NCBI GenBank assembly: GCA_964416825.1
Contig: CAYQFT010000004.1
Span: forward strand, 1 to 50,247
DNA from: an uncultured Porphyromonadaceae bacterium
GTDB taxonomy: Bacteria > Bacteroidota > Bacteroidia > Bacteroidales > UBA12481
Length of the DNA stretch: 50,247 bases
Direction of reading: 5' to 3'
The notes beneath the pieces are model-generated. The model saw only the letters and a program-made list of their open reading frames with translations. It was not told the DNA's origin and did not search any database. Shown in pieces: positions 32,300 through 46,434 of this stretch (within the stretch, counting starts at the first letter, position 1; every line of letters starts with the position of its first letter). Position numbers and translations under genes: made by a program.

Positions 32300-35200
32300 A
32301 TGGCTATGAAGAAAAAACAACCTCTGATAATCATGGGCGCCCTGCTGTTCGCCCTGGTTCTTGTTTCGGCTTCCTGCACCAATGCGGTGAAAGTGAAGCA
32401 AAACGGCGATGTGACTACCCTTAAAAATGAGTTGGTGGGTCTGGATTTTAACCTGACAACCGGAACCTACAACATCAGGAACTTAACGGGCAATACGACA
32501 CCGATCCGTGACGCAGCGCTGAAAATCAACAACTGGTCATCCGACGCTGAAAACCAACGGATCACCTGGAAGAAATCAGCGGTTTCGGATGAACCGGGAA
32601 AAGGAATGGCCTTAACCCTGAAAATCGAATCCGACAATCAGCCGGTGATGATTTTCTGTTTTACCCTCTATGAAAACCAGGGATACTTCACGGTCTCCGG
32701 TGGAATCGAAAATACAACGGCCGAAAGCATTCAGGTAATGGAAATCCATGCACTGACCGGTGCGAAGGCCTACGGCGGAACGGAGTTCCCTGATAACTTC
32801 ACCATGATCGACGGTTTCAGCGCCGGAGAGCCGCTCGAATACGGTGAAAGGATGTATTCCCCCCTCACCAGGGAGTACGCACTTAAATCGCGGAATAACA
32901 TTCTGCTGACGTTCGGTACGGGCCAGGCGCGGCAAACCCTGGTGATGGGTGGGCTCTCCTATTCGGATTATGAAAAATTTGCTGTGCTGGAACAGAGCCG
33001 GCAAGTGGAACTTGAAAAAGGTCCGGATGGCAAAAGCAGCCTCCTCTGCTACCTTAACCTGCCTGATGATAAACTGGATGAGTCGGCCAGCGGGGAGAAG
33101 CTGGAACTTGTGCAAGGCAGTCAGAAACAAACCTGGCAGAACAATGAATTCCGATGCACGGAAACGGCCACATCAGCCAAGGATCCTGAGAAAATCATCC
33201 TGGATATTAAAAACCTCGACAAGGGAAAACCATACTTCCTGGGTTTCTCGTGGTGGAGGGGTCTGTGGCATGGCGACCGGAAAGATCACAGGCAGTCGGT
33301 TTTTGTACAGTTCATAAAAGAGGGTAAACTTACCCGGATTGCCCTGTTGGAAAACCAGCTGCTCCCGCGTTTTGATGGCGTGAAAAAGGAGGACGTTGAA
33401 CAGGTGGAACTGCCTGTTCCCATTGAGGCAGTGAGGGCCGGCGAATTTCAATTGCTGGTGGAGCGCCCTTCGGCCGACTATGAAAACAACGCGAAGGATC
33501 CGAATGTATATCTGAGTGAGCTGTGGCTGCGCGATGGCACGGGAAAGCCCCTGCTGACGGATCGGCTGACGCCGGTGAATGAATGCGTCAGGCCAAGAAG
33601 GGAATATACGGCCCGTCTTTATGCTTTGGATCCTGTTGGCAAAAGAGTGGATCCGGGGACGACCTATATCCCGGATGATCAGTTTTATATCGATGTCACC
33701 TGCCCCGATCCTTTCGAAGCCCTGGAACAATACGCACGGCAGGTTAGCCAGGCCCAGCATATCGAGCTGAGCATGTATGATTTCCCATCGGTATGCCTCT
33801 GGTACGCTCAGGTTAGCGGTTATGGGGGAGGTGCAGCAGATAATACAACCCTCGGGGCCGTCAGGGAGATGGACATTATTGCCGAAAGCGGATTCCTTAA
33901 ATATAGCCGGGCTGCCGTGCGACTGGTGCCGGATTCCTATTTGCCCAACAACCAGCAGGGCTGGTGGGACGACAAGCACTGGCAGATGGAGGAAACGGAC
34001 CAGAATGCCAGTAAGAACGGACGATATGTTGAGCCTTACGAGACTTCTGAGAAATGGGGTAAGGCAGTGACCGATCGCGGCGGGATACCCCTCACCTATG
34101 TTCAAACCGGCTTCCGGTCGGAGGATTATGCAATAGCGTTCCCCGGTCATATGCTTTTCAATAGTTCCTATGCCTGGAAGGGGGAACCGCAGGATACCTC
34201 AGGCGATTTGTTTAAGACATGGAACCAGGCATGGGCGCGGCCCCGGTACGTGTGGGGCTATGATTATACCGATCCTGATTTTCTGAGCCATCTGAAGGAT
34301 GTATATAAAAACCTTGCATCCGGCGGCATCAAAGGACTTATGTTCGACTATCCGTTCTCGGGATGGGCATCCGGCGGAGGCATGGAGGATCCGTATTCAA
34401 CAACGGCCGCAGCCTACCGGAATATCTTCCGCATGCCATACGAAGGCCTGGGCCCGGGATCCTATGTCGATGAACGCAATATGGAGAAGGGAAGTGATGT
34501 GACGATAGGCTACGTGGCTTCCATGCGCACAGAGAATGATACCGACCTGATGGATGAAGTTACGGTTACCCGCTGCGGGCTCCGATGGTACAAAAACAGG
34601 GTCCTTTACAACCAGGATACGGATTCGAAGAATATTGCCCGCCTGCAGGGAAGCAGGGACCAGGTGCGCTCCGTGGTGACCATGGCATATGTGACTACCG
34701 GCCGGTTTCTTCTGGCCAACAGCTTTTCCCAATTTTCTGATGAAACATTCCACGACCTTACCCGCACTTTCCCTTATCCAACGGAAAACCGGTCGGCGCG
34801 GCCAATAGATGCCTTCGTAAGCGAATACCCAATGGTTTACGATTTCAAGGTGGATGATGGCTGGCACCAGGTGACCTTCTATAATGGCGATTTTGAGAAG
34901 GAAAACAACATCGGCATCAACCTCGCCGGCGAAGCCGTGGACGGTGCACTGGGACTGGATCCCGCGAAATCCTATCATGTTTACGATTTCTGGAATGATC
35001 GGTATGTGGGGATTTATAAAGGATCGGCCCGGCTCGAGCAAACAAACAGGCCGGGAGAGGCGCGAATGCTTTCAGTGAGGGAAGTGACGCCACATCCCAG
35101 GGTGTTATCTTCTGATCGCCATATCATGCAGGGTTACCTCGACATGAGCGATGAAAAATGGAATGATGGAACGAAAATCCTTTCCGGAACCAGTAAGGTG

Positions 35201-35377
35201 ATAGGCGGTGATCCTTATATACTGACCAGCACATCCAGTGGTTTTGACCCGGAGAAGGTCTCCACCGCAACCACGGATGCAAGGATTTCCCTGATTAAAA
35301 GCGAAAATGGCTTAATCAAAATAAGAATCGAATCCGACAGTAACTCTACCGTTAAATGGCAAATATCTTATAATTAG
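32300..35377 (+). CDS. Large lipoprotein, putative glycoside hydrolase (GH27/GH36 clan-D-like, unclassified)
   Basis: Lipobox SASC; YDYTDP..GIKGLMFDY and MRTENDT as candidate catalytic Asp motifs; C-terminal YHVYDFW..Y.G domain seen in alpha-galactosidase-like proteins. Confidence 0.55.
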   Translation: MAMKKKQPLIIMGALLFALVLVSASCTNAVKVKQNGDVTTLKNELVGLDFNLTTGTYNIRNLTGNTTPIRDAALKINNWSSDAENQRITWKKSAVSDEPGKGMALTLKIESDNQPVMIFCFTLYENQGYFTVSGGIENTTAESIQVMEIHALTGAKAYGGTEFPDNFTMIDGFSAGEPLEYGERMYSPLTREYALKSRNNILLTFGTGQARQTLVMGGLSYSDYEKFAVLEQSRQVELEKGPDGKSSLLCYLNLPDDKLDESASGEKLELVQGSQKQTWQNNEFRCTETATSAKDPEKIILDIKNLDKGKPYFLGFSWWRGLWHGDRKDHRQSVFVQFIKEGKLTRIALLENQLLPRFDGVKKEDVEQVELPVPIEAVRAGEFQLLVERPSADYENNAKDPNVYLSELWLRDGTGKPLLTDRLTPVNECVRPRREYTARLYALDPVGKRVDPGTTYIPDDQFYIDVTCPDPFEALEQYARQVSQAQHIELSMYDFPSVCLWYAQVSGYGGGAADNTTLGAVREMDIIAESGFLKYSRAAVRLVPDSYLPNNQQGWWDDKHWQMEETDQNASKNGRYVEPYETSEKWGKAVTDRGGIPLTYVQTGFRSEDYAIAFPGHMLFNSSYAWKGEPQDTSGDLFKTWNQAWARPRYVWGYDYTDPDFLSHLKDVYKNLASGGIKGLMFDYPFSGWASGGGMEDPYSTTAAAYRNIFRMPYEGLGPGSYVDERNMEKGSDVTIGYVASMRTENDTDLMDEVTVTRCGLRWYKNRVLYNQDTDSKNIARLQGSRDQVRSVVTMAYVTTGRFLLANSFSQFSDETFHDLTRTFPYPTENRSARPIDAFVSEYPMVYDFKVDDGWHQVTFYNGDFEKENNIGINLAGEAVDGALGLDPAKSYHVYDFWNDRYVGIYKGSARLEQTNRPGEARMLSVREVTPHPRVLSSDRHIMQGYLDMSDEKWNDGTKILSGTSKVIGGDPYILTSTSSGFDPEKVSTATTDARISLIKSENGLIKIRIESDSNSTVKWQISYN

Positions 35378-38722: not shown

Positions 38723-39211
38723 TTAAAAAGCCGGGCTGGCTTTCCATTCGCCGACCATAAATATGTATAACAGCCCGATGATCCCGACACTAACGGCTAA
38801 TGTGCTTCCGCGCAAAGCAGCATTTGAGTTTTGGGGATCCTTGGCTTTCCTGGCAACAATAATCTGAGGAACCACAAATCCCAGGACTGTTCCCGTTACC
38901 AGGCCCGCCCAGCCAACTGCGGTTCCCATATTCATGACCTCACCGCCAAGGTATCCGGCACCCACTCCACCCAGACATCCCAGTATGCCGCCAAGGGCTC
39001 CGGTACGGAAGTACTTCCGGGTGCTCCCCTGAACCGAATCTCCCGCGAAAGGCGCTGCAAAACAATTCTCACAGGGGCCGATTGTAGTCTCGTTGATGGT
39101 TTCCAACATACACCGGACCTGTTCCCGGTCGTAATCAAAAAACCGGCTCTCCTGGGCTTCTGCATCAAGGCACCACAGGCAGATCAGAAGGGTTATCCCG
39201 ATACTTTTCAT
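38723..39211 (-). CDS. Hypothetical Gly-rich membrane protein (paralog of 43483..43950)
   Basis: Signal peptide from ATG 39211; FDYDR, Gly-rich TM helices, GFVVPQIIV. Confidence 0.7.
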   Translation of the reverse strand: MKSIGITLLICLWCLDAEAQESRFFDYDREQVRCMLETINETTIGPCENCFAAPFAGDSVQGSTRKYFRTGALGGILGCLGGVGAGYLGGEVMNMGTAVGWAGLVTGTVLGFVVPQIIVARKAKDPQNSNAALRGSTLAVSVGIIGLLYIFMVGEWKASPAF

Positions 39212-39279
39212 GGTTGATCGTAATTCACTGAAAGGTAATGAACTGTATGAAAATAACCAAAAAAAATTCTGAGTCCACG

Positions 39280-40248
39280 CTATATCGCCCCCTCCCTGCA
39301 CCGGTCGCTGCACCGGTTGCACTGGATGCAATCGTAACTGGAAACTTTCTGAATTTCCTCTTTCTTACTGATGGTGATCGCCTGCGTGGGACACGATTTT
39401 ACACAAAGGCTGCAGGAGGTGCATCGGGTTTTGTCGATCCGGCGAGGCTTCCAGGCCACCATTGAAAAGAGCCCGAGGATAGCAGAATAGGGGCATAAAA
39501 GGCGGCAAAAGGGTCTTTCCACCCAATAGCCCGCCAGCAGGGTGACCAGGAGGTACCCCCAGCCGAAAAAACTGAAACTCAACAGGAGTTTCGGCTCCAT
39601 GGGAAACCCGATCAGCCAGGCGATCCCCTGTTCAAACCAGGCTTTCCCGGTAAAGAAAACCGGCTTGTAGGGATCCAGCTCGCAGCCCAGGTAAAGGGTT
39701 CCGCTGATCCCAAAGTACACGGTTGCGATCAGCACCAGGATGGGCGCAATTTTCAGGTACCGGTTGACCTTCACCGGCAGCTTGTACGATTTTTTCTTCT
39801 TGTAAAACAGATGCTGGATGGCACCAAGCGGACAGCCGGCCGTGCAGAAAACCCGGCCCCAGATCAGCGCAATCACCAGCGGAGCCAAAAACATCACAAG
39901 TCCCACCAGCCCGATCATATAGGGCAGGATGATGCCCATAACCATGTTGGTGGTGAGTCCCATCGGACAGATGCATCCGCCGCGGAGAAGCCCCAGATAG
40001 GCAAGTGTGATAATCGCCAGCCAATTCATCCACCGTGCCGGTTTCCGGGTAACCACAAACCACGAGCCGGCCAGCATCAGGAGAAGCAAAACCCCCAGAT
40101 CCGCATAAACCAGCCACTCAGGCAGCGGCAGGTACTCCTGCGGAATCCATTTATCCCTGAAAGTCGCAATCTCGCTCAGGGCAATCTGCTCGGGAGTATA
40201 ACAGACCGTATCAGCCTGCTGGGCAAGCTGTTGAAAAGGAAAAATCAT
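39280..40248 (-). CDS. Membrane polyferredoxin (NapH/MauN/NosR-C-like 4Fe-4S binding protein)
   Basis: Multiple TM helices; CICP, GRVFCTAGCPLG, RPFCRLLCP; two CxxCxxCxxxC motifs at the C-terminus. Confidence 0.88.
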   Translation of the reverse strand: MIFPFQQLAQQADTVCYTPEQIALSEIATFRDKWIPQEYLPLPEWLVYADLGVLLLLMLAGSWFVVTRKPARWMNWLAIITLAYLGLLRGGCICPMGLTTNMVMGIILPYMIGLVGLVMFLAPLVIALIWGRVFCTAGCPLGAIQHLFYKKKKSYKLPVKVNRYLKIAPILVLIATVYFGISGTLYLGCELDPYKPVFFTGKAWFEQGIAWLIGFPMEPKLLLSFSFFGWGYLLVTLLAGYWVERPFCRLLCPYSAILGLFSMVAWKPRRIDKTRCTSCSLCVKSCPTQAITISKKEEIQKVSSYDCIQCNRCSDRCREGAI

Positions 40249-40901
40249 CCGCCCTGCTCCTTTCGTCCCGAAAAATCAAAACTCTTGTCCGCGGGATCCT
40301 CCCTTTCGAGTTCCCAGATCCCCTTGAACTCATCTTCCGGTCCGATAAATACTTTGTCCACAGCCTTTTCCGGACAATTGACAGCCACATTGCAGCTGTT
40401 GCAGTTCAGGCATAAATCGGGGCGAATGATCAGGAACATCGATTTGGTGCCCTTCTTGGTGCATTGCGCAACGCAAATCCCGCAGCCATCGCACTTGTCA
40501 TCGTCAATTTCATAAACGAAATAGCCGTCGGGCCTGCCTGAGTAGTCGATCCGGATAACGGCATCCTTTGGACAAACCCGCTTCCCTTCTGACATGATCT
40601 TGTCGGAGGCGATGCGCTTATTCGATATATGCCCGTAGCAAACCACGCAGAACGAACATTTTTTCTGGTCATTGACCGCTTTCACGGCGGAGGGCTTTCT
40701 CACGCACAGGGTCTTGCACCCGTCGCACCCGATGCATTTATTCGGATCGATCTGCCAGGCATGGCGCGTGCGGGGACCTGCCTCATCCTCGTTGAGATGC
40801 GTTCCGACCACGCGGTAAACCACGCCTCCCAGCGCCAGTCCGCAAACCGCCCGGCCTGCCATGATGATAAACTTCCGCCTTCCGGCTTCCATCGGACTCA
40901 T
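40245..40901 (-). CDS. Multi-cluster 4Fe-4S ferredoxin with twin-arginine-like N-terminus
   Basis: GRRKFIIMAG followed by a hydrophobic stretch; CIGCDGCKTLC, CSFCVVC, CDGCGICVAQC, CLNCNSC..CP; start reassigned to ATG 40901. Confidence 0.85.
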   Translation of the reverse strand: MSPMEAGRRKFIIMAGRAVCGLALGGVVYRVVGTHLNEDEAGPRTRHAWQIDPNKCIGCDGCKTLCVRKPSAVKAVNDQKKCSFCVVCYGHISNKRIASDKIMSEGKRVCPKDAVIRIDYSGRPDGYFVYEIDDDKCDGCGICVAQCTKKGTKSMFLIIRPDLCLNCNSCNVAVNCPEKAVDKVFIGPEDEFKGIWELEREDPADKSFDFSGRKEQGG

Positions 40902-40902
40902 T

Positions 40903-41754
40903 CTATTTACCGGTAAAAGGTTTGGGATTCCAGGGTATGGGTTTGATAAAACCCTTGCTGGCAAAACTTTCGGGGATACTCTTTTCCGATATTTCGAGCA
41001 GTGCTTTTTGCAGCCTTGCCGCATCGCCCCTGCCCACCCGCTTCAGGTTGACCACCACGGAGCAGAGCGGGATATCTTCGGTTTTCCAGATCGTACGGAA
41101 AGTATCTTCCCCGGCAAAATCCACGGCGCAGCTGGCTATCAGGGCATAATCCGATATCACCGCAACATCGGCTTCATTGTCGAGAAGCGCGTTGATTCCT
41201 TCGGTGCAGCCCGATTTCCGCGTAATCCTTGAGGGCTGAATGCCCTTCTCCTTCAGCTGCCTCATGGCCAGGTGGTATTTTTCGTAGGAGTTCTCCTCGC
41301 CCATGGTCAGGACTTTGCCGTTGATATCCTCGGGACTCATCAGGGGAGACTCTTTCTTAACAATGAATATCCCTCCCACCAGACCGTTATCAAAAGGATC
41401 CAGCACGTCGGCAACACGTTCGGGCTTCATCCCCTTTGCCTGCATATTTCGTAAGGCAAACCAGGGCTTGCAGATGGCGCCGTCGAAGTTCCCGCTCCGG
41501 ATCGAATCTTCGAGATCCGATTCCTCGAGGCAGTAAACCAGCTCGAGGCCGATGTCATACTTGTCCCTCAGAATCTCAGCAACCTCCTCATATTCACGGG
41601 AGGCCAGGTACTGGATGCATGCGCAGGCAGTTGCACTGCAATAGGTATCGTTCACCGCCAGCCTCAGGGTAAGGGGTTTGGTCCTGCAACCCGCCAGAAT
41701 CAGGCAAAACAGTACGATGAACACAAGGGGAAGCCCCGTTTGTCTGAACCTCAT
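40903..41754 (-). CDS. PhnD-like (phosphonate-binding fold) periplasmic binding lipoprotein with a Cys cluster
   Basis: Lipobox LAGC; IFIVKKESPLMSPEDINGK, EADVAVISDY, IWKTEDIP; N-terminal YCSATACAC. Confidence 0.75.
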   Translation of the reverse strand: MRFRQTGLPLVFIVLFCLILAGCRTKPLTLRLAVNDTYCSATACACIQYLASREYEEVAEILRDKYDIGLELVYCLEESDLEDSIRSGNFDGAICKPWFALRNMQAKGMKPERVADVLDPFDNGLVGGIFIVKKESPLMSPEDINGKVLTMGEENSYEKYHLAMRQLKEKGIQPSRITRKSGCTEGINALLDNEADVAVISDYALIASCAVDFAGEDTFRTIWKTEDIPLCSVVVNLKRVGRGDAARLQKALLEISEKSIPESFASKGFIKPIPWNPKPFTGK

Positions 41755-41755
41755 G

Positions 41756-43345
41756 CTACGGATGCTTTGGTACCGGAATGCATTTAACGATGCCCGAGTT
41801 GGCCGAAGCGAGATACAGGTTATTCTTGCTGTCGGTGGTCATGGGGATGTATGCGCAGCCTTTCACCAGCTCCTGGATCCCTTCAATTTTTTTGGCCCCC
41901 GACTGGGTAAAGACCTTGATCCGGGTGGGGTCTTTTTCAACTGTGACAACCGCACCGTTATTCAGAAAGGTGACGTTGACCGGATTGCAGCATCCGTGGA
42001 AATCATTCAACCCCTGGCCGCGCTTGCCGAAGGCATACTTGATGGTGCCCGAATAATCAAACGCCTGCACCCGGAATGCGCCCAGGTTGGCAATGAGGAT
42101 CTCCGACTTGTCGTTAACCCCAAAGTCGAGGATGCCGCAGCAGGCCCGAAGGTCCTTGATCGACGACTCCATTTTGCCGGTTTCAAGATTATAGATTGCC
42201 ACCTTTCTCTGCTTGACGTCTGCCACCAGCAGCTTGCCGTTGACCACCTTCGCTCCGGTCGCAGTTTTGACATCCGGCAAGGTGAGGCTGCGAATCTGAG
42301 TCCCCTTGGAGTCATAAACCTGGCACTCCACACCCTTCTGCTCTTCAATCTGATAAACTTTTCCCCTGACTTTCGTCTCCTTCATCTCGGTAAGCGTACC
42401 CAGAACATAAATGGCACCGGTGGTCTGGGCAATGGCTATGGCCGACGGCTTGCCCTGCAGGGCAGCCTTGAATTCGCTGATCTTTTTCCCGGTTGCATCG
42501 AAGATCCAGACACTTCCGTCGCGCTTCAGCCCGCAAACCTGGTCATTGGGAAAAGAAGCCAGATAAGCCATGTTCGTCAGGGTGCCGCCGGCAAACGCCG
42601 GGTCGAGCTGGTACTCCATATCCGGAGCCTGGTTGGTAAAAGCCTCAACCTTCACATCGGTGTTCTTCAGCATCTCGATATTATCCCGAATATCCTGGAC
42701 AATTTTCGATTCTTCCAGGGAGGCATCGAGGACCGCCAGGTTTTTTTCAATTTCCTCGGCGCTGAGCCCGGAGGACATCCGCTCCACCAAAATGGCGGAA
42801 TAATAGGACGCCGGATTCTGCCTGATAAAATCCTGCTCCCATTGTTCGGACTCCTTCGTCAGGATATCACTCACGCTGTCGATGACGCGCATGTCCGCTT
42901 CATTCCTCGACTTCTCATAAATCTTATAGAGAGAATCCAGTTTGTGTTTTTGATAAAGCTTGCTTAGTCCCTCGCCGTATTTTTTATCATCCTCATTAAT
43001 CTTTCCTCCCCTGACCTCTGCAGCATAGAGCGTATCAATATGGCCGGTGAGGGTCATCTTTGCATTCTCTGCATAAAAATAGACGGGATACTCCCTGTCT
43101 TCAACCATGAGGTAATACTGGCCGGGTTCGGGCAGTTTACCTTTAAAAACGAATTGGCCATTGGTTATCGCTACGGTATCGGAATAGGGGTCGTCCGACT
43201 TGATTCCGGACAAAATGGCCTTCCCTTCGGTAATACCGGCCAGGGTTCCTTTCAGTTCGAAGGAGGCCTCTTTCGGCTTACACGAACCAAGAAATAGGGT
43301 AACACACAGAATAATAGATAATTGAATCAAAGAGTTTGGTTTCAT
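41756..43345 (-). CDS. Lipoprotein: DUF4369 N-terminus plus NHL-like beta-propeller with ACCG and GCCNP motifs
   Basis: Lipobox LGSC; FELKGTL..DTVAITNGQFVFKGKLPEP..FYAEN (DUF4369); C-terminal blades LLVAD, ILIANLGAFRV..FGKRG, VVTVEK..RIKVF. Confidence 0.75.
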   Translation of the reverse strand: MKPNSLIQLSIILCVTLFLGSCKPKEASFELKGTLAGITEGKAILSGIKSDDPYSDTVAITNGQFVFKGKLPEPGQYYLMVEDREYPVYFYAENAKMTLTGHIDTLYAAEVRGGKINEDDKKYGEGLSKLYQKHKLDSLYKIYEKSRNEADMRVIDSVSDILTKESEQWEQDFIRQNPASYYSAILVERMSSGLSAEEIEKNLAVLDASLEESKIVQDIRDNIEMLKNTDVKVEAFTNQAPDMEYQLDPAFAGGTLTNMAYLASFPNDQVCGLKRDGSVWIFDATGKKISEFKAALQGKPSAIAIAQTTGAIYVLGTLTEMKETKVRGKVYQIEEQKGVECQVYDSKGTQIRSLTLPDVKTATGAKVVNGKLLVADVKQRKVAIYNLETGKMESSIKDLRACCGILDFGVNDKSEILIANLGAFRVQAFDYSGTIKYAFGKRGQGLNDFHGCCNPVNVTFLNNGAVVTVEKDPTRIKVFTQSGAKKIEGIQELVKGCAYIPMTTDSKNNLYLASANSGIVKCIPVPKHP

Positions 43346-43482
43346 CGGGTATAATCTATCGGGTTTAATAATCCAGCTTAAAGATTATAAAAACCAGCCA
43401 GATGAATGACAGCCCAGCTGACTTATTTACGATTTTTCGTACATGCCGGCAATACGGTTCTGGTTAATTTACAGAGCCGCTT

Positions 43483-43950
43483 CTACTGACTTTCTCCGAT
43501 AATGATCAGGGCCGCTAACAGGACCAGATCAACGCCCAGGCCGGCAAGGCTTCCCAGGGCCGCCTTTCCGCAGGCCTTAGGATCGCCGGTTTGGCGATAA
43601 ACGATGATCTGCGGAACCAAAAATCCAAGACCTACTCCCACAAGGGTGGAGGCCCAGCCAAAGGATTCCTTGAATTTGAGAACCTCGGCTCCAAAGCCGC
43701 CGATGGCCAGACCGGCCAGCGGGCCTGCAAATCCTCCTATGGCACCGGCCCAGAATGATTGTTTGTAATTCATGGCGGGATCTGTTGTACTCATCAAACT
43801 GTAACCGGCATAAACCGGGCGAAAACCGGTCGGGTTGCCGGTTACCATCATCCTCCCCACCGCTCCGCGGTTGTAATCAAAAAGACTTTGCTGACTAAAG
43901 ACCGACAGGCTCAGGGCTGATACCACGATAAGAAGAAGAAATCGTTTCAT
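43483..43950 (-). CDS. Hypothetical Gly-rich membrane protein (paralog of 38723..39211)
   Basis: Signal peptide; FDYNR, GAIGG, GFLVPQIIV..DP. Confidence 0.75.
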   Translation of the reverse strand: MKRFLLLIVVSALSLSVFSQQSLFDYNRGAVGRMMVTGNPTGFRPVYAGYSLMSTTDPAMNYKQSFWAGAIGGFAGPLAGLAIGGFGAEVLKFKESFGWASTLVGVGLGFLVPQIIVYRQTGDPKACGKAALGSLAGLGVDLVLLAALIIIGESQ

Positions 43951-43989
43951 GGCAGCACGTATTTTGAGGAAAGTTAAGAAAATAAAATG

Positions 43990-44574
43990 CTATTTTCTTT
44001 CTTTCAGTGCCTGCTCAATATTCTTATCGGGGATAAGCCAGATCACTGATACAACGAAAAAGATGGCTCCGGAAAAATAGGGGCTTACAAAAGCTAATGG
44101 TATTGACAGGAAATAAAGTATGGTTGATATTATTCCTTTCTTATTCATGATCACAAACGCTTTCCTCAATGCTTCCAAATCATGGGAATTGCGCTCTACG
44201 GCCCGCATCAGGACATAAAATGCGAGACCGGTTATCAGCAAAAGCGTAGCATACGCAGCAACCGTGTTGGTGGCAAAATGATTTTCACCCATCCATCCGG
44301 TCACAAACGGAACCAGCGACATCCAGAAAAGCAGGTTAAGGTTGGCCCAGATCATCCCTGAAGAAACACTCGCCACCGAATGGAGCAAATGATGGTGGTT
44401 GCCCCAATATATCCCTATATACACAAAACTCGCCAGATAGCTGAGAAGTGTTGGAATCAGCTCCCTCAATTCTGACCAATCACTGGTGTGCGGGATTTTC
44501 AATTCCAACACCATGATTGTAATGATAATGGCCAGGACACCATCGCTGAATGCTTCCAATCTCGACTTATTCAT
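43990..44574 (-). CDS. TMEM175 family potassium channel (DUF1211)
   Basis: RLEAFSDGVLAIIITIMVLE, YWGNHH, NLNLLFWMSLVPF; start reassigned to ATG 44574. Confidence 0.92.
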   Translation of the reverse strand: MNKSRLEAFSDGVLAIIITIMVLELKIPHTSDWSELRELIPTLLSYLASFVYIGIYWGNHHHLLHSVASVSSGMIWANLNLLFWMSLVPFVTGWMGENHFATNTVAAYATLLLITGLAFYVLMRAVERNSHDLEALRKAFVIMNKKGIISTILYFLSIPLAFVSPYFSGAIFFVVSVIWLIPDKNIEQALKERK

Positions 44575-44730
44575 GGCGGGTTTTGTTTTTTTTAAGGGTA
44601 ATGAATTCAGATCCTGAAACAACGCAGATAAACCATTTGTTTCACAGGAGTAAATCGATATTTGCAAAATACGGGTAAAAAGCATCGAAAAAAGTCGTAA
44701 CATAGACCGATTGTTTTCAATACCTAACAC

Positions 44731-46434
44731 ATGAAAAGCAAACTGATATTTCTCCTATTACCAGCAGCGACCATACTTTTTGGCCAATCGGTATCGGGAC
44801 AAAACTCCGGAACGGCTACTGATCAAATGAAACAGATGCACCGTGAAACCCTGGACGACCCCTATCTGCCCAATGCCTACAACAACCAGCGGACCTCTCC
44901 GGCATACCGCTACACTAACCGGGTTAAATCAAACCCGCAGCACAGCAGCATCCGCACAACGCAGGTAAATGTCAATGCAAATGGTCAGAACATCCTGGGC
45001 GATGCGGCCAACGAACCCAGCATTGCAGTGAATCCACGTGACGCGAACAATATTGTGATAGGATGGCGCCAGTTCGACAACATAGCGAGCAATTTCAGGC
45101 AGGCCGGCTGGGGCTATACCATGAACGGCGGGGAAAACTGGACGTTTCCCGGTGTGATTGAACCCGGGATTTTTCGCTCGGATCCCGTTCTCGACTGGGA
45201 TGCCGACGGGAACATTTTTTACAACAGCCTGACGAACAGTCCTGACTATTTCTGCAAGGTTTTTGAATCCTCAAACGGAGGGGTCGCCTGGGATGCCGGA
45301 ACCGATGCACACGGGGGCGATAAGCAGTGGATGGTCATCGACCGGACCGATGGAATCGGCCGGGGAAATATTTATTCCACCTGGTCCTATTACTTCAGCA
45401 CCTGCGTGCCCGGGTTTGCCACCCGTTCGGCGGACCATAACCGGCATTATGAAAACTGCTTCACCGTTGACGGCAGTCCTTACTGGTGTACGATGGCCAT
45501 CGGGAATTCCGGTGAACTTTACATTGGCGGAGCCTCCGGAATGGGCGACAGCCTCGTGGTGTCAAAATCGGTGAATGCGAACGTCCCTGATTCCGCGGTC
45601 ACCTGGAACAAGCGGGTAATGGTCTATATCGGCGGCACCCCGAACGGCTGGTCCAGTATCAATCCCGTGGGCCTCCTGGGCCAGATCAGCATTGATGTGG
45701 ACCACTCCGAAGGCCCCGGCCGGGGAAATGTCTACCTGCTGGCTCCTGTTACCCGCGCCTCAATCGGCGATCCCTGTGATGTAATGTTTACTCGGAGTAC
45801 GGATGCAGGACTTACCTGGAGCAATCCCATGCGGATTAACGACGATGAGTCGGTCACCAACACACAGTGGTTCGGCACCATGTCGGTGGCCCCCGATGGA
45901 AGGATTGATGCCATCTGGCTCGATACCCGCGACGCACCGGCCGGATCGGATTCATCGGCTCTGTATTATTCCTTTTCAACAGATCAGGGAAAAACCTGGT
46001 CGGTGAATGAAAAGCTCTCCGCTTCCTTCAATCCGCATGTGGGCTATCCCAACCAGGATAAGCTCGGGGATTATTTCGACATGGTTTCCGACAATTCCGG
46101 CGCTCACCTCGCCTGGGCCAATACCCTGAACGGTGAGCAGGATGTCTATTACAGCCGGATTATTCCATACTCCTCCACCGGAGTCAATGAGATAACCCTT
46201 CAAAATACTCTTTCGGTTTTTCCGAACCCGGTAAGTGGCACCATGATGATCCGGGGCCTGAAAGAGGGCTCCAGAATTGAGATATACTCCTTGTTGGGCA
46301 GTAAAATTCATTCGGACAGTTCAATGGAAACAGAAGTTGAAATGGATATCTCCGCCTACCCGGCAGGCATTTACTCATTGAAGGTCATAAGTCCTGATGG
46401 GTCAATCACGATTAAAAAGATTATCAGGAAATAA
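44731..46434 (+). CDS. BNR/Asp-box sialidase-like beta-propeller protein with T9SS type-A sorting domain
   Basis: Asp boxes (SSNGGVAW, STDAGLTW, STDQGKTW), DKQW, GDY; C-terminal VFPNP..IYSLLG..GIYSLKV..KIIRK. Confidence 0.88.
   Translation: MKSKLIFLLLPAATILFGQSVSGQNSGTATDQMKQMHRETLDDPYLPNAYNNQRTSPAYRYTNRVKSNPQHSSIRTTQVNVNANGQNILGDAANEPSIAVNPRDANNIVIGWRQFDNIASNFRQAGWGYTMNGGENWTFPGVIEPGIFRSDPVLDWDADGNIFYNSLTNSPDYFCKVFESSNGGVAWDAGTDAHGGDKQWMVIDRTDGIGRGNIYSTWSYYFSTCVPGFATRSADHNRHYENCFTVDGSPYWCTMAIGNSGELYIGGASGMGDSLVVSKSVNANVPDSAVTWNKRVMVYIGGTPNGWSSINPVGLLGQISIDVDHSEGPGRGNVYLLAPVTRASIGDPCDVMFTRSTDAGLTWSNPMRINDDESVTNTQWFGTMSVAPDGRIDAIWLDTRDAPAGSDSSALYYSFSTDQGKTWSVNEKLSASFNPHVGYPNQDKLGDYFDMVSDNSGAHLAWANTLNGEQDVYYSRIIPYSSTGVNEITLQNTLSVFPNPVSGTMMIRGLKEGSRIEIYSLLGSKIHSDSSMETEVEMDISAYPAGIYSLKVISPDGSITIKKIIRK

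Follow-up and report, generated by a model that had tools for sequence, protein, structure and literature searches.

Results

The locus

The stretch analysed here, a window of 50,247 nucleotides from contig CAYQFT010000004.1 of an uncultured Porphyromonadaceae bacterium, carries four tightly packed genes on the minus strand at positions 39280-43345. We call them A, B, C and D. They encode two cysteine-rich lipoproteins, a ferredoxin and a membrane polyferredoxin. Together they are a real, conserved and undescribed module, in which the theme of the NapH-like electron conduit is joined to new cysteine-rich clients. All coordinates are positions in the window unless a locus is named, and the features are listed here.

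41756..43345, minus strand: gene A, a lipoprotein of 529 amino acids with DUF4369, a linker and a six-bladed NHL propeller (from the open reading frame (ORF) list, Pfam and an AlphaFold2 (AF2) model)
42134..42145, minus strand: ACCG, residues 401-404 of A, with the vicinal pair Cys402-Cys403 (computed from the translation)
41981..41995, minus strand: GCCNP, residues 451-455 of A, with the vicinal pair Cys452-Cys453 (computed from the translation)
40903..41754, minus strand: gene B, a Cys-rich PhnD-fold lipoprotein of 283 amino acids (ORF list, Pfam, AF2, Foldseek)
41617..41643, minus strand: YCSATACAC, residues 38-46 of B, the Cys-rich loop after the first strand (sequence)
40245..40901, minus strand: gene C, a ferredoxin of 218 amino acids with a twin-arginine motif and 16 Cys (start codon read from the DNA; Fer4 families)
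39280..40248, minus strand: gene D, a NapH-like membrane polyferredoxin of 322 amino acids (ORF list; Fer4_5, PF12801)

The ORF list gives the frame of C as 40245-41024, longer than the gene from our chosen start. In the DNA, the TAG stop of B at 40903-40905 is followed by one base and then by the ATG of C at 40901. Because this ATG sits one base past the stop of B, we take C to be the 218-residue protein at 40245-40901 that begins MSPMEAGRRKF. The ATG of D overlaps the TGA of C by 4 bp (ATGA at 40245-40248), and a 1-bp gap separates the stop of A from the start of B. ORFs and DNA together confirm what a sequence-only reading of the window had described, four co-oriented genes with 1-bp gaps or a 4-bp overlap, and its coordinates for ACCG and GCCNP are exact against the translation.

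That reading had also called the set undescribed, and we found no paper or database name for it. Scans of curated family models at their cut-offs assigned none of the four proteins to a family, and the homologs are named in databases only as 'DUF4369 domain-containing protein', 'hypothetical protein' or with generic PhnD/SsuA labels. A literature search on the four-gene set and its protein combinations returned nothing on the set, the supplementary tables of PMC8238504 lying outside the comparison, and none of the papers listed for DUF4369 deals with its function.

The four genes are a conserved, co-inherited unit

Full-length or contig-truncated A is present in five of 41 related genomes (G000, G004, G007, G013 and G017), and B was found in exactly these five. 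The other matches to A in the 41 genomes are different proteins that align with only one part of it, either DUF4369 or the propeller. The order A-B-C-D is kept in 4/4 same-genus loci, whose surroundings contain none of the four proteins that flank the set in the window. B was found in none of 400 other genomes sampled across the phylum (E <= 1e-20).

A scan anchored on A, with one genome per species, gave 39 loci. They come from Draconibacterium, Marinifilum, Ancylomarina, Puteibacter, Carboxylicivirga, Saccharicrinis, Sunxiuqinia, several Bacteroidales metagenome-assembled genomes (MAGs) and one Pontiellaceae MAG. A has B-C-D or C-D beside it in 13 of them. Ten genomes whose A loci had no B-C-D nevertheless carried exactly one B each (10/10), with B, C and D in a row in nine and a copy of A adjoining in seven of the ten. 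In the tenth (locus L116) B and D flank a C-sized slot, where the ORF filter had kept an overlapping ORF on the opposite strand.

Metagenomes gave a further 37 loci anchored on B. A lies directly upstream of B in 23 of the 28 with at least 300 nt of upstream sequence, C lies downstream in 28/30 and D in 19/22; many of the A proteins in these loci are propeller-only, without DUF4369. The same four-gene order is found in about 40 loci from two phyla, and A to D are a conserved, co-inherited four-gene module. The earlier claim that the four genes form a unit holds in this neighbourhood check, as order and co-inheritance are kept across genomes and loci.

A is a lipoprotein with a Cys-rich NHL propeller

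A begins with a signal peptide and a lipobox (Cys22), followed by DUF4369 (residues 29-119), a helical linker (120-237) and a six-bladed NHL propeller (245-526). DUF4369 (PF14289, 56.7 bits against a cut-off of 25) is its only Pfam match. The lipobox cysteine is present in 44/44 rows of an alignment of 43 paralogs and the window copy. The AF2 model, built from a 43-sequence alignment, has a pLDDT of 89.8 and shows a beta-sandwich, the helical linker and six blades of four strands.

The best structural matches of the propeller are NHL domains. VIA gives Z 28.1 to Brat, with a root-mean-square deviation of 2.5 Å over 252 residues, and Foldseek agrees on NHL (E 7.5e-15), the Brat/TRIM NHL domains being the top structural matches (Z 28). 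Other VIA matches are peptidyl-hydroxyglycine lyase (PAL, Z 24.9), the NHLRC2 propeller (Z 22.1) and soluble glucose dehydrogenase (Z 19.7). Window A has no PF01436 match at E <= 0.01; some homologs carry a precomputed PF01436 match. The Pfam scan gave no pyrroloquinoline quinone (PQQ) family either (PF01011 or PF13360, E <= 0.01). Six four-stranded blades, the missing PQQ match and the NHL best matches speak against an eight-bladed PQQ dehydrogenase propeller, and with it the analogy to PQQ methanol dehydrogenase that had been drawn for A fails.

Residues 9-235 of A match lipoproteins of the TlpA-like type, with DUF4369 and AhpC/TSA, best (27% identity, E 1.7e-21). In the matched protein (L006) the AhpC/TSA domain occupies residues 247-365, and its start aligns with the start of the propeller in A. 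The Pfam scan finds no AhpC/TSA, Redoxin or Thioredoxin match in A, and the propeller fills that position. Because the N-terminal half matches TlpA-like proteins and their domain starts at about residue 247, A is a TlpA-type lipoprotein scaffold in which a propeller stands in for the thioredoxin domain.

Cys271, 402, 403, 452, 453 and 497 of the propeller are present in every non-gap row, Cys341 in 41/43 and Cys522 in 42/43. Taken as pairs, the cysteines of ACCG are kept in 43/43 non-gap rows and those of GCCNP in 43/43 rows. In the DSSP blade register of the AF2 model Cys402/403, Cys452/453 and Cys497 immediately precede the innermost strand of blade 4, blade 5 and blade 6. The cysteines are therefore predicted to cluster as a crown at the propeller centre, with their position relative to the central channel read from the blade register only. 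Majority conservation is 0.73-0.85 in blades 4-6 against 0.50-0.59 in blades 1-3.

We also considered selenocysteine in A or B and dropped it, as no in-frame stops were seen in orthologs. The second A paralog of a Carboxylicivirga MAG (L036, 5912-7458) is broken at about residue 325 and continues in another, overlapping frame, likely through a frameshift or an assembly error; the break lies away from any Cys.

B is a PhnD-fold lipoprotein with invariant cysteines

B has the lipobox LAGC (Cys23) and, besides the cysteines of its first-strand loop, others at 75, 95, 183, 209 and 231. It matches Phosphonate-bd (PF12974) with 67 bits against a cut-off of 27 and so belongs to the fold at the level of the domain; the PhnD equivalog TIGR03431 gives 21.5 bits against a cut-off of 261.1. 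Foldseek returns HtxB, PtxB, ArrX, AioX and PhnD, all with probability 1.00 and template-modelling (TM) scores of 0.59-0.65. A profile search of PDB sequences reached E 0.012 at best, to PtxB, and found no close solved relative. An ESM Atlas search returned generic phosphonate-binding clusters only. Fused forms of B were absent at E <= 1e-10 among proteins of 556-2000 amino acids, which is weak evidence. The PhnD fold also speaks against the likeness to MxaJ/XoxJ that had been suggested for B, and no MoxJ-type family appeared in the curated-family scan.

Cys44, 46, 183 and 209 are present in 14/14 orthologs and Cys39 in 13/14. The consensus of the first-strand loop is NDTYCxxTACxC, in which Y38, A43, C44 and C46 are invariant. 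From alignment and fold, the ligand cleft of B carries invariant cysteines at the usual anion-binding positions as well as in this loop. The AF2 model has a pLDDT of 82.8, and drops under 50 only in the Cys loops (residues 39-52 and 208-211). The motifs singled out in the sequence-only reading, GCCNP and CCG in A and CxC in B, all prove invariant or nearly so in the ortholog and paralog alignments.

C and D resemble the NapG/NapH pair

C has a twin-arginine RRKF at residues 8-11, and 13/14 orthologs have RR[KNS]F. All 16 of its cysteines, enough for four [4Fe-4S] clusters, are kept in 14/14 orthologs. It matches generic 4Fe-4S (Fer4) families only, with 15.3 bits to NapG (NF007012) against a cut-off of 269, and has the NapG-like architecture of a twin-arginine signal followed by four Cys groups for [4Fe-4S] clusters.

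D matches Fer4_5 (PF12801) with 40.2 bits against a cut-off of 22, and Fer4 families over residues 270-322. Its scores are 60 bits against 213.05 for NapH/MauN (TIGR02163) and 54.2 against 234 for NapH (NF007013), with residues 220-321 alone aligning. It contains GGCICP (C92, C94), two CX3CP motifs (C135/C139 and C248/C252), C189 and a C-terminal 2x[4Fe-4S] domain. Fifteen cysteines, including C135/C139, C248/C252 and the eight of the C-terminus, are present in 15/15 orthologs. A hydropathy and charge sketch suggests about five transmembrane segments, which would place the K-rich loop and the iron-sulfur (Fe-S) domain on the cytoplasmic side of the membrane and GGCICP and Cys189 on its outer side.

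By architecture C and D are a NapG/NapH-type Fe-S pair. The earlier description of a NapG/NapH- or MauM/MauN-type pair agrees with what we find: the arginine pair of a twin-arginine translocation (Tat) signal, 16 Cys, Fer4_5, two CX3CP motifs and the dicluster domain. The Pfam scan detected no domain that binds flavin mononucleotide (FMN) in A-D.

Genomic neighbourhood

Neighbouring ORFs were clustered and then Pfam-scanned, with many singleton ORFs in related loci left unannotated. A layout recurs around A: an extracytoplasmic function (ECF) sigma factor with a FecR anti-sigma factor, SusC, SusD, one to three TlpA-like lipoproteins, a thioredoxin-domain protein of 400 amino acids, sometimes a DegP-like protease, and A. 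SusC/SusD are present in 18 of the 39 A loci, a thioredoxin-fold gene in 21 and either in 29; three have neither these nor B-C-D. CxxC is found in 22/22 TlpA-like and 7/7 Trx403 neighbours.

DsbD genes are the other recurring companions. A full DsbD follows D in L016, L031, L065 and, by label, in the Marinifilum loci L119-L121, and a stand-alone DsbD_N-like gene precedes B in L034, L049, L065 and, by label, L119-L121. An M16 peptidase lies downstream in L018 and L065. In the three Marinifilum genomes (L119-L121) the order is SusC-SusD-Trx-Trx-TlpA-SRPBCC-DsbD_N-B-C-D-DsbD-M16, the stretch fetched for L121 ending before M16. Where A is not beside B, a TlpA or thioredoxin gene is (L059, L060, L065 and L119-L121). 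In L059 and L060 a TlpA-like gene stands upstream of B in place of A, and in L065 a DsbD_N-like gene is directly upstream of B, with TlpA and thioredoxin genes further up. The loci thus link the module systematically to periplasmic thioredoxin and DsbD biology and to SusC/SusD import loci.

The window ORFs scanned include no nap, mau or nos gene, and neither do the neighbours at related loci that were classified or Pfam-scanned, where many singleton ORFs are unannotated. The sequence-only reading had noted that no gene for an ATP-binding cassette (ABC) permease or ATPase, nitrate reductase or amine dehydrogenase is nearby, and the 12 neighbouring window ORFs scanned contain none of these and no other ABC gene. 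At other loci no permease, ATPase or kinase is a regular neighbour.

Several loci have further genes close to the set. Six Marinifilum loci (L033, L037-L041) carry, downstream of an A paralog, a 124-residue protein of no family, GlpA/GlpB/GlpC-like genes, which encode FAD oxidoreductases and a CCG-domain Fe-S protein, and a POT-family peptide transporter. L026, L042 and L052 have genes for a CoA-disulfide-reductase/rhodanese fusion and for a thioredoxin at a distance of a few genes from an A paralog; these three loci share synteny and so probably count as one independent observation. A chemoreceptor and a response-regulator/kinase gene adjoin the set in L051. In L073 (145-1914) a radical-SAM/BATS-domain protein of 589 amino acids is directly upstream of a propeller-only A, a single case.

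The set as an accessory cassette

Around the set, the window codes for a pair of small paralogous membrane proteins, a DUF1846 protein, an amino-acid permease, a TMEM175-like channel and a BNR protein sorted by the type IX secretion system. The small paralogs (38723-39217 and 43483-43950, both minus strand) have a signal peptide and glycine-rich membrane sequence, share 33% identity, match no Pfam family and flank the operon on both sides. Further off, at 32300-35377 on the plus strand, is an ORF of 1025 amino acids with no Pfam family at E <= 1e-4.

In G011 (89-91% nucleotide identity), the closest relative, collinearity with the window reaches as far as 39268 and resumes at 44833. G011 is without 39269-44832, having no A-D, no upstream small paralog and no TMEM175 gene, and keeps the downstream small paralog. 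In G006 the DUF1846 and BNR genes stand side by side. In this genus the four genes are an accessory cassette.

The two metagenome runs compared, which carry the labels freshwater and lake water, have near-identical contigs over most of the stretch. In DNA run X3 one contig passes straight from 43403 to 43807, leaving out 403 nt that make up the greater part of the upstream small paralog. This piece is thus absent or replaced in a related population. In the RNA-library run X24 four contigs of 151 nt match C and B at >= 99% identity. They are a weak hint that B and C are expressed, as carry-over of DNA is possible, and the contigs do not show strand or operon structure. Scans for sigma-70-type promoters and for terminators came out near the shuffle expectation and carry no weight here, as Bacteroidota use promoter motifs other than the sigma-70 type.

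A wider family of FxGCCxP propellers

The genome has a paralogous operon on contig C112 (locus L091, 615-9298). Its genes encode, in order, a BamB/PQQ_2-like propeller (487 amino acids), an NHL propeller (321), a ferredoxin (192), a NapH-like protein (418), a second BamB-like propeller (637) and a NuoF-like protein (779). The ferredoxin is 36% identical to C and the NapH-like protein 33% identical to D. The NHL propeller is anchored by a transmembrane segment and carries FSGCCGP; it has no Pfam or NCBIfam match. The operon is syntenic in 11 of the 12 relatives' loci fetched.

The blade-5 pair of GCCNP is the only Cys feature common to A and the 321-residue propellers (13/13). In the joint alignment of both groups F449, C452, C453, P455, T468, E470, K471 and K477 are invariant. 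A profile search of 1.84 billion representatives gave 1200 matches at E <= 1e-30, about 1200 sequence clusters to which the FxGCCxP propellers contribute. Among the best 150 of these 1200, GCCxP is present in 33/35 proteins of the length of A and 92/95 of less than 440 amino acids (125/130 non-giant proteins), and in 2/20 giant NHL proteins. FxGCCxP is the hallmark of a larger propeller family, which likewise has ferredoxin and NapH-like genes as partners.

A third NapH-like gene (334 amino acids, Fer4_5) lies on contig C33 (locus L127, 2178-3807). It is divergent beside a gene for a secreted AhpC/TSA thioredoxin-fold protein of 173 amino acids, and the pair is intact in 4/7 relatives' loci. 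With the operon and the arrangements on C112 and C33, all three NapH-like genes of the genome adjoin a gene for a periplasmic Cys-based protein.

Discussion

The four genes, which are inherited together in anaerobic Bacteroidota and their relatives, seem to power thiol-based chemistry beyond the cytoplasm in a manner not yet described. We give about even weight, for and against, to the proposal that A-D are a single extracytoplasmic redox module, in which an Fe-S conduit feeds a periplasmic reductive system of the thiol/disulfide type. The core of the sequence-only reading, a periplasm-facing module with an Fe-S conduit pair, has stood, and its PQQ and MxaJ analogies have not. It also missed the TlpA-like scaffold of A, the setting of SusC/SusD, thioredoxin and DsbD genes, and the wider family of FxGCCxP propellers.

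We infer the topology, the order and direction of electron flow, the redox role of the cysteines and the substrate as follows. D would be a NapH-like polyferredoxin of the inner membrane and C a Tat-exported four-cluster ferredoxin, together forming an iron-sulfur wire to the periplasm. The electrons could come from menaquinol, or from a cytoplasmic donor acting through the cytoplasmic clusters of D. The clients of the wire would be the Sec-exported, Cys-rich lipoproteins A and B. The vicinal pair of FxGCCxP would be the redox-active centre of A, which would carry out thiol/disulfide (or persulfide) chemistry with the electrons that the module delivers, and B may be an adaptor or a carrier of a co-substrate. 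The direction would be reductive, the substrates being disulfide- or persulfide-type compounds or peptides imported by SusC/SusD-type systems, and the module would act alongside TlpA-like thioredoxins and DsbD.

A number of points weigh against this proposal. A and B cannot carry Fe-S clusters inserted in the cytoplasm, because both are Sec lipoproteins. Menaquinol is a poor reductant for ordinary disulfides, so quinol-driven reduction would be thermodynamically uncomfortable unless D uses a cytoplasmic donor of lower potential. With a DsbD gene next to B-C-D in several loci, the need for another supply of reductant is not obvious, and the module may have a different role. The eight invariant cysteines of A are an even number and could all be in structural disulfides. 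The window itself has no SusC/SusD, TlpA or DsbD gene adjoining the operon. Nor is the set rigid: L021 has A-A-C-D without B, with A-B-C-D at L022 in the same MAG; B-C-D has no adjacent A in L059, L060, L065 and the three Marinifilum loci; no A is seen at L072 and L085 and no C or D at L078 and L085, and L073 shows C without D.

The proposal can be taken further, at which point it becomes doubtful. C and D with B would then be an Fe-S route for exporting reducing power that is independent of thioredoxin, the third beside DsbD and CcdA. The NHL propellers with FxGCCxP would be new vicinal-disulfide catalysts that reduce disulfides or persulfides imported by SusC/SusD, and the membrane-anchored FxGCCxP family, far larger and with ferredoxin/NapH-like partners of its own, would be the housekeeping version of this chemistry.

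The alternative that survives best, which we still consider unlikely, is the handling of a thiophilic metal or metalloid. B would bind As(III), Sb(III), Cu(I), Hg(II), Se or Te species through its cleft cysteines, A would hold them on its Cys crown and C and D would reduce or oxidise them, for uptake, detoxification or respiration. The arsenite- and arsenate-binding proteins AioX and ArrX are among the nearest solved folds of B; the TM scores to them (0.61-0.62) are, however, no better than those to phosphite and phosphonate binders. Five invariant or near-invariant cysteines of B sit at anion-binding positions, and these loops alone are of low confidence in the AF2 model, the pattern expected for a site that needs its ligand. 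In ArsD As(III) is bound by a vicinal Cys pair, as is Hg(II) in MerA, and CcoG, a protein related to NapH, acts as a cupric reductase, all of which would suit a metal substrate. So would the SusC-type TonB-dependent receptors with ECF sigma/FecR regulators that stand beside many A paralogs. Against this, no ars, mer, cop, arr or aio gene occurs among the neighbours classified, and the constant companions, thioredoxin-fold proteins, DsbD, peptidases and a peptide transporter, point to thiol or peptide chemistry rather than to metal traffic.

That electrons run the other way seems to us quite improbable. A would then act in the periplasm as a dehydrogenase or thiol oxidase, taking electrons from a substrate with its vicinal disulfide and passing them by way of B and C to D and the quinone pool, much as in methanol dehydrogenase without its PQQ. 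Conduits of the NapH-like type are also described beside periplasmic oxidases such as ExaA (PMC8238504). Six-bladed enzymes with a central active site, PAL and soluble glucose dehydrogenase, are among the structural neighbours of A, and the invariant E470 and K471 near the CC pair could be catalytic. The best structural matches of A are, however, non-enzymatic NHL domains, and it has no PQQ family signal. The genomic company belongs to the reductive branch, with DsbD, DsbD_N and TlpA-like proteins with CxxC, and no oxidising partner of the DsbA/DsbB type was seen in it.

We think it very improbable that the four genes are no functional unit, B being an ordinary solute-binding protein of a sensor or transporter that happens to adjoin an electron-transfer pair to which it is unrelated, and A serving Sus-like loci as a structural or binding lipoprotein. 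B does belong to PF12974, and PhnD-fold domains serve as sensors, as in AioX with AioS and the periplasmic domain of TtrS. The signalling genes at L051 and the A paralogs that stand without B-C-D (26/39 loci) would also fit. What speaks against it is that B occurs only in genomes with A (5/5 among the 41 relatives and 10/10 others), nearly always in order with C and D, that no permease, ATPase or kinase regularly accompanies it, and that the classic ligand-binding residues of B are replaced by Cys. That the cluster is what remains of a nap, mau or nos operon, as suggested by the NapG/NapH-, MauM/MauN- and NosG/NosH-like architecture of C and D, can be set aside, because the same order is found in about 40 loci of two phyla without such genes among the neighbours classified or scanned, and the scores to curated NapG, NapH and NapH/MauN are far under the cut-offs (15/269, 54/234 and 60/213).

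Returning to the Fe-S-fed reductive module, we compared each of its parts with known systems. Like C and D, NapG/NapH, the quinol dehydrogenase of periplasmic nitrate reductase, and the related pairs MauM/MauN and NosG/NosH combine a Tat-exported four-cluster ferredoxin with a Fer4_5 polyferredoxin that has CX3CP and a C-terminal dicluster domain, and their genes are adjacent and translationally coupled. Unlike NapH, D has an extra N-terminal transmembrane segment and conserved cysteines predicted to be periplasmic (C92, C94 and C189). Unlike NapG/NapH loci, those of C and D have no napA/B/C, mau or nos gene beside them among the ORFs scanned, and the apparent clients are Cys-rich lipoproteins.

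The nearest published framework is that of the NapH-like extracytosolic systems. There, NapH-like proteins are described as modular conduits that serve varied periplasmic reductases and oxidases, most of whose reactions are unknown (Meheust et al. 2021, PMC8238504). C and D share the modular conduit and the varied periplasmic partners. The published systems are defined there by an FMN-binding domain flavinylated by ApbE; A-D, with no such domain detected, would instead use the Tat ferredoxin as the periplasmic relay.

A shares its lipobox, DUF4369 and helical linker with the TlpA-like DUF4369 + AhpC/TSA lipoproteins. They have a thioredoxin-fold CxxC domain where A has an NHL propeller with CC pairs. 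A also keeps company with the TlpA-like/DsbD pathway, standing among TlpA-like genes and beside DsbD or DsbD_N genes in Sus-like loci. DsbD is a membrane protein that works as a Cys relay, whereas the electron supply beside A would be an Fe-S wire. NHLRC2 likewise joins an NHL propeller to redox biology of the thioredoxin type; in NHLRC2 (PMC6107167; PDB 6g7w and 6gc1) a thioredoxin-like domain is fused to the propeller, whereas in A the propeller takes the place of that domain.

B shares its fold and PF12974 with PhnD, PtxB, HtxB, AioX and ArrX. Unlike that group it has no regular ABC or sensor partner, and has invariant cysteines in the first-strand loop and in the cleft. PQQ methanol dehydrogenase with MxaJ/XoxJ resembles A and B in that a propeller containing vicinal cysteines goes together, in the periplasm, with an orphan partner of binding-protein fold. 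It differs in its eight PQQ blades, against six NHL blades without a PQQ match in A, in the PhnD fold of B and in having a cytochrome partner, for which A and B have no counterpart.

The module can be tested directly, because several of its carriers (Marinifilum, Ancylomarina and Puteibacter) are cultured. NapH-like polyferredoxins are widespread and their clients are mostly unknown. Here one of them comes with a well-defined set of clients from two uncharacterised Cys-rich families, tied to the equally unexplained loci of SusC/SusD and thioredoxin lipoproteins that are common in Bacteroidota. If A-D are indeed an Fe-S-fed thiol or persulfide reductase, they would add to the means by which reducing power is known to cross the inner membrane, and would give a handle on what the Sus-like loci import.

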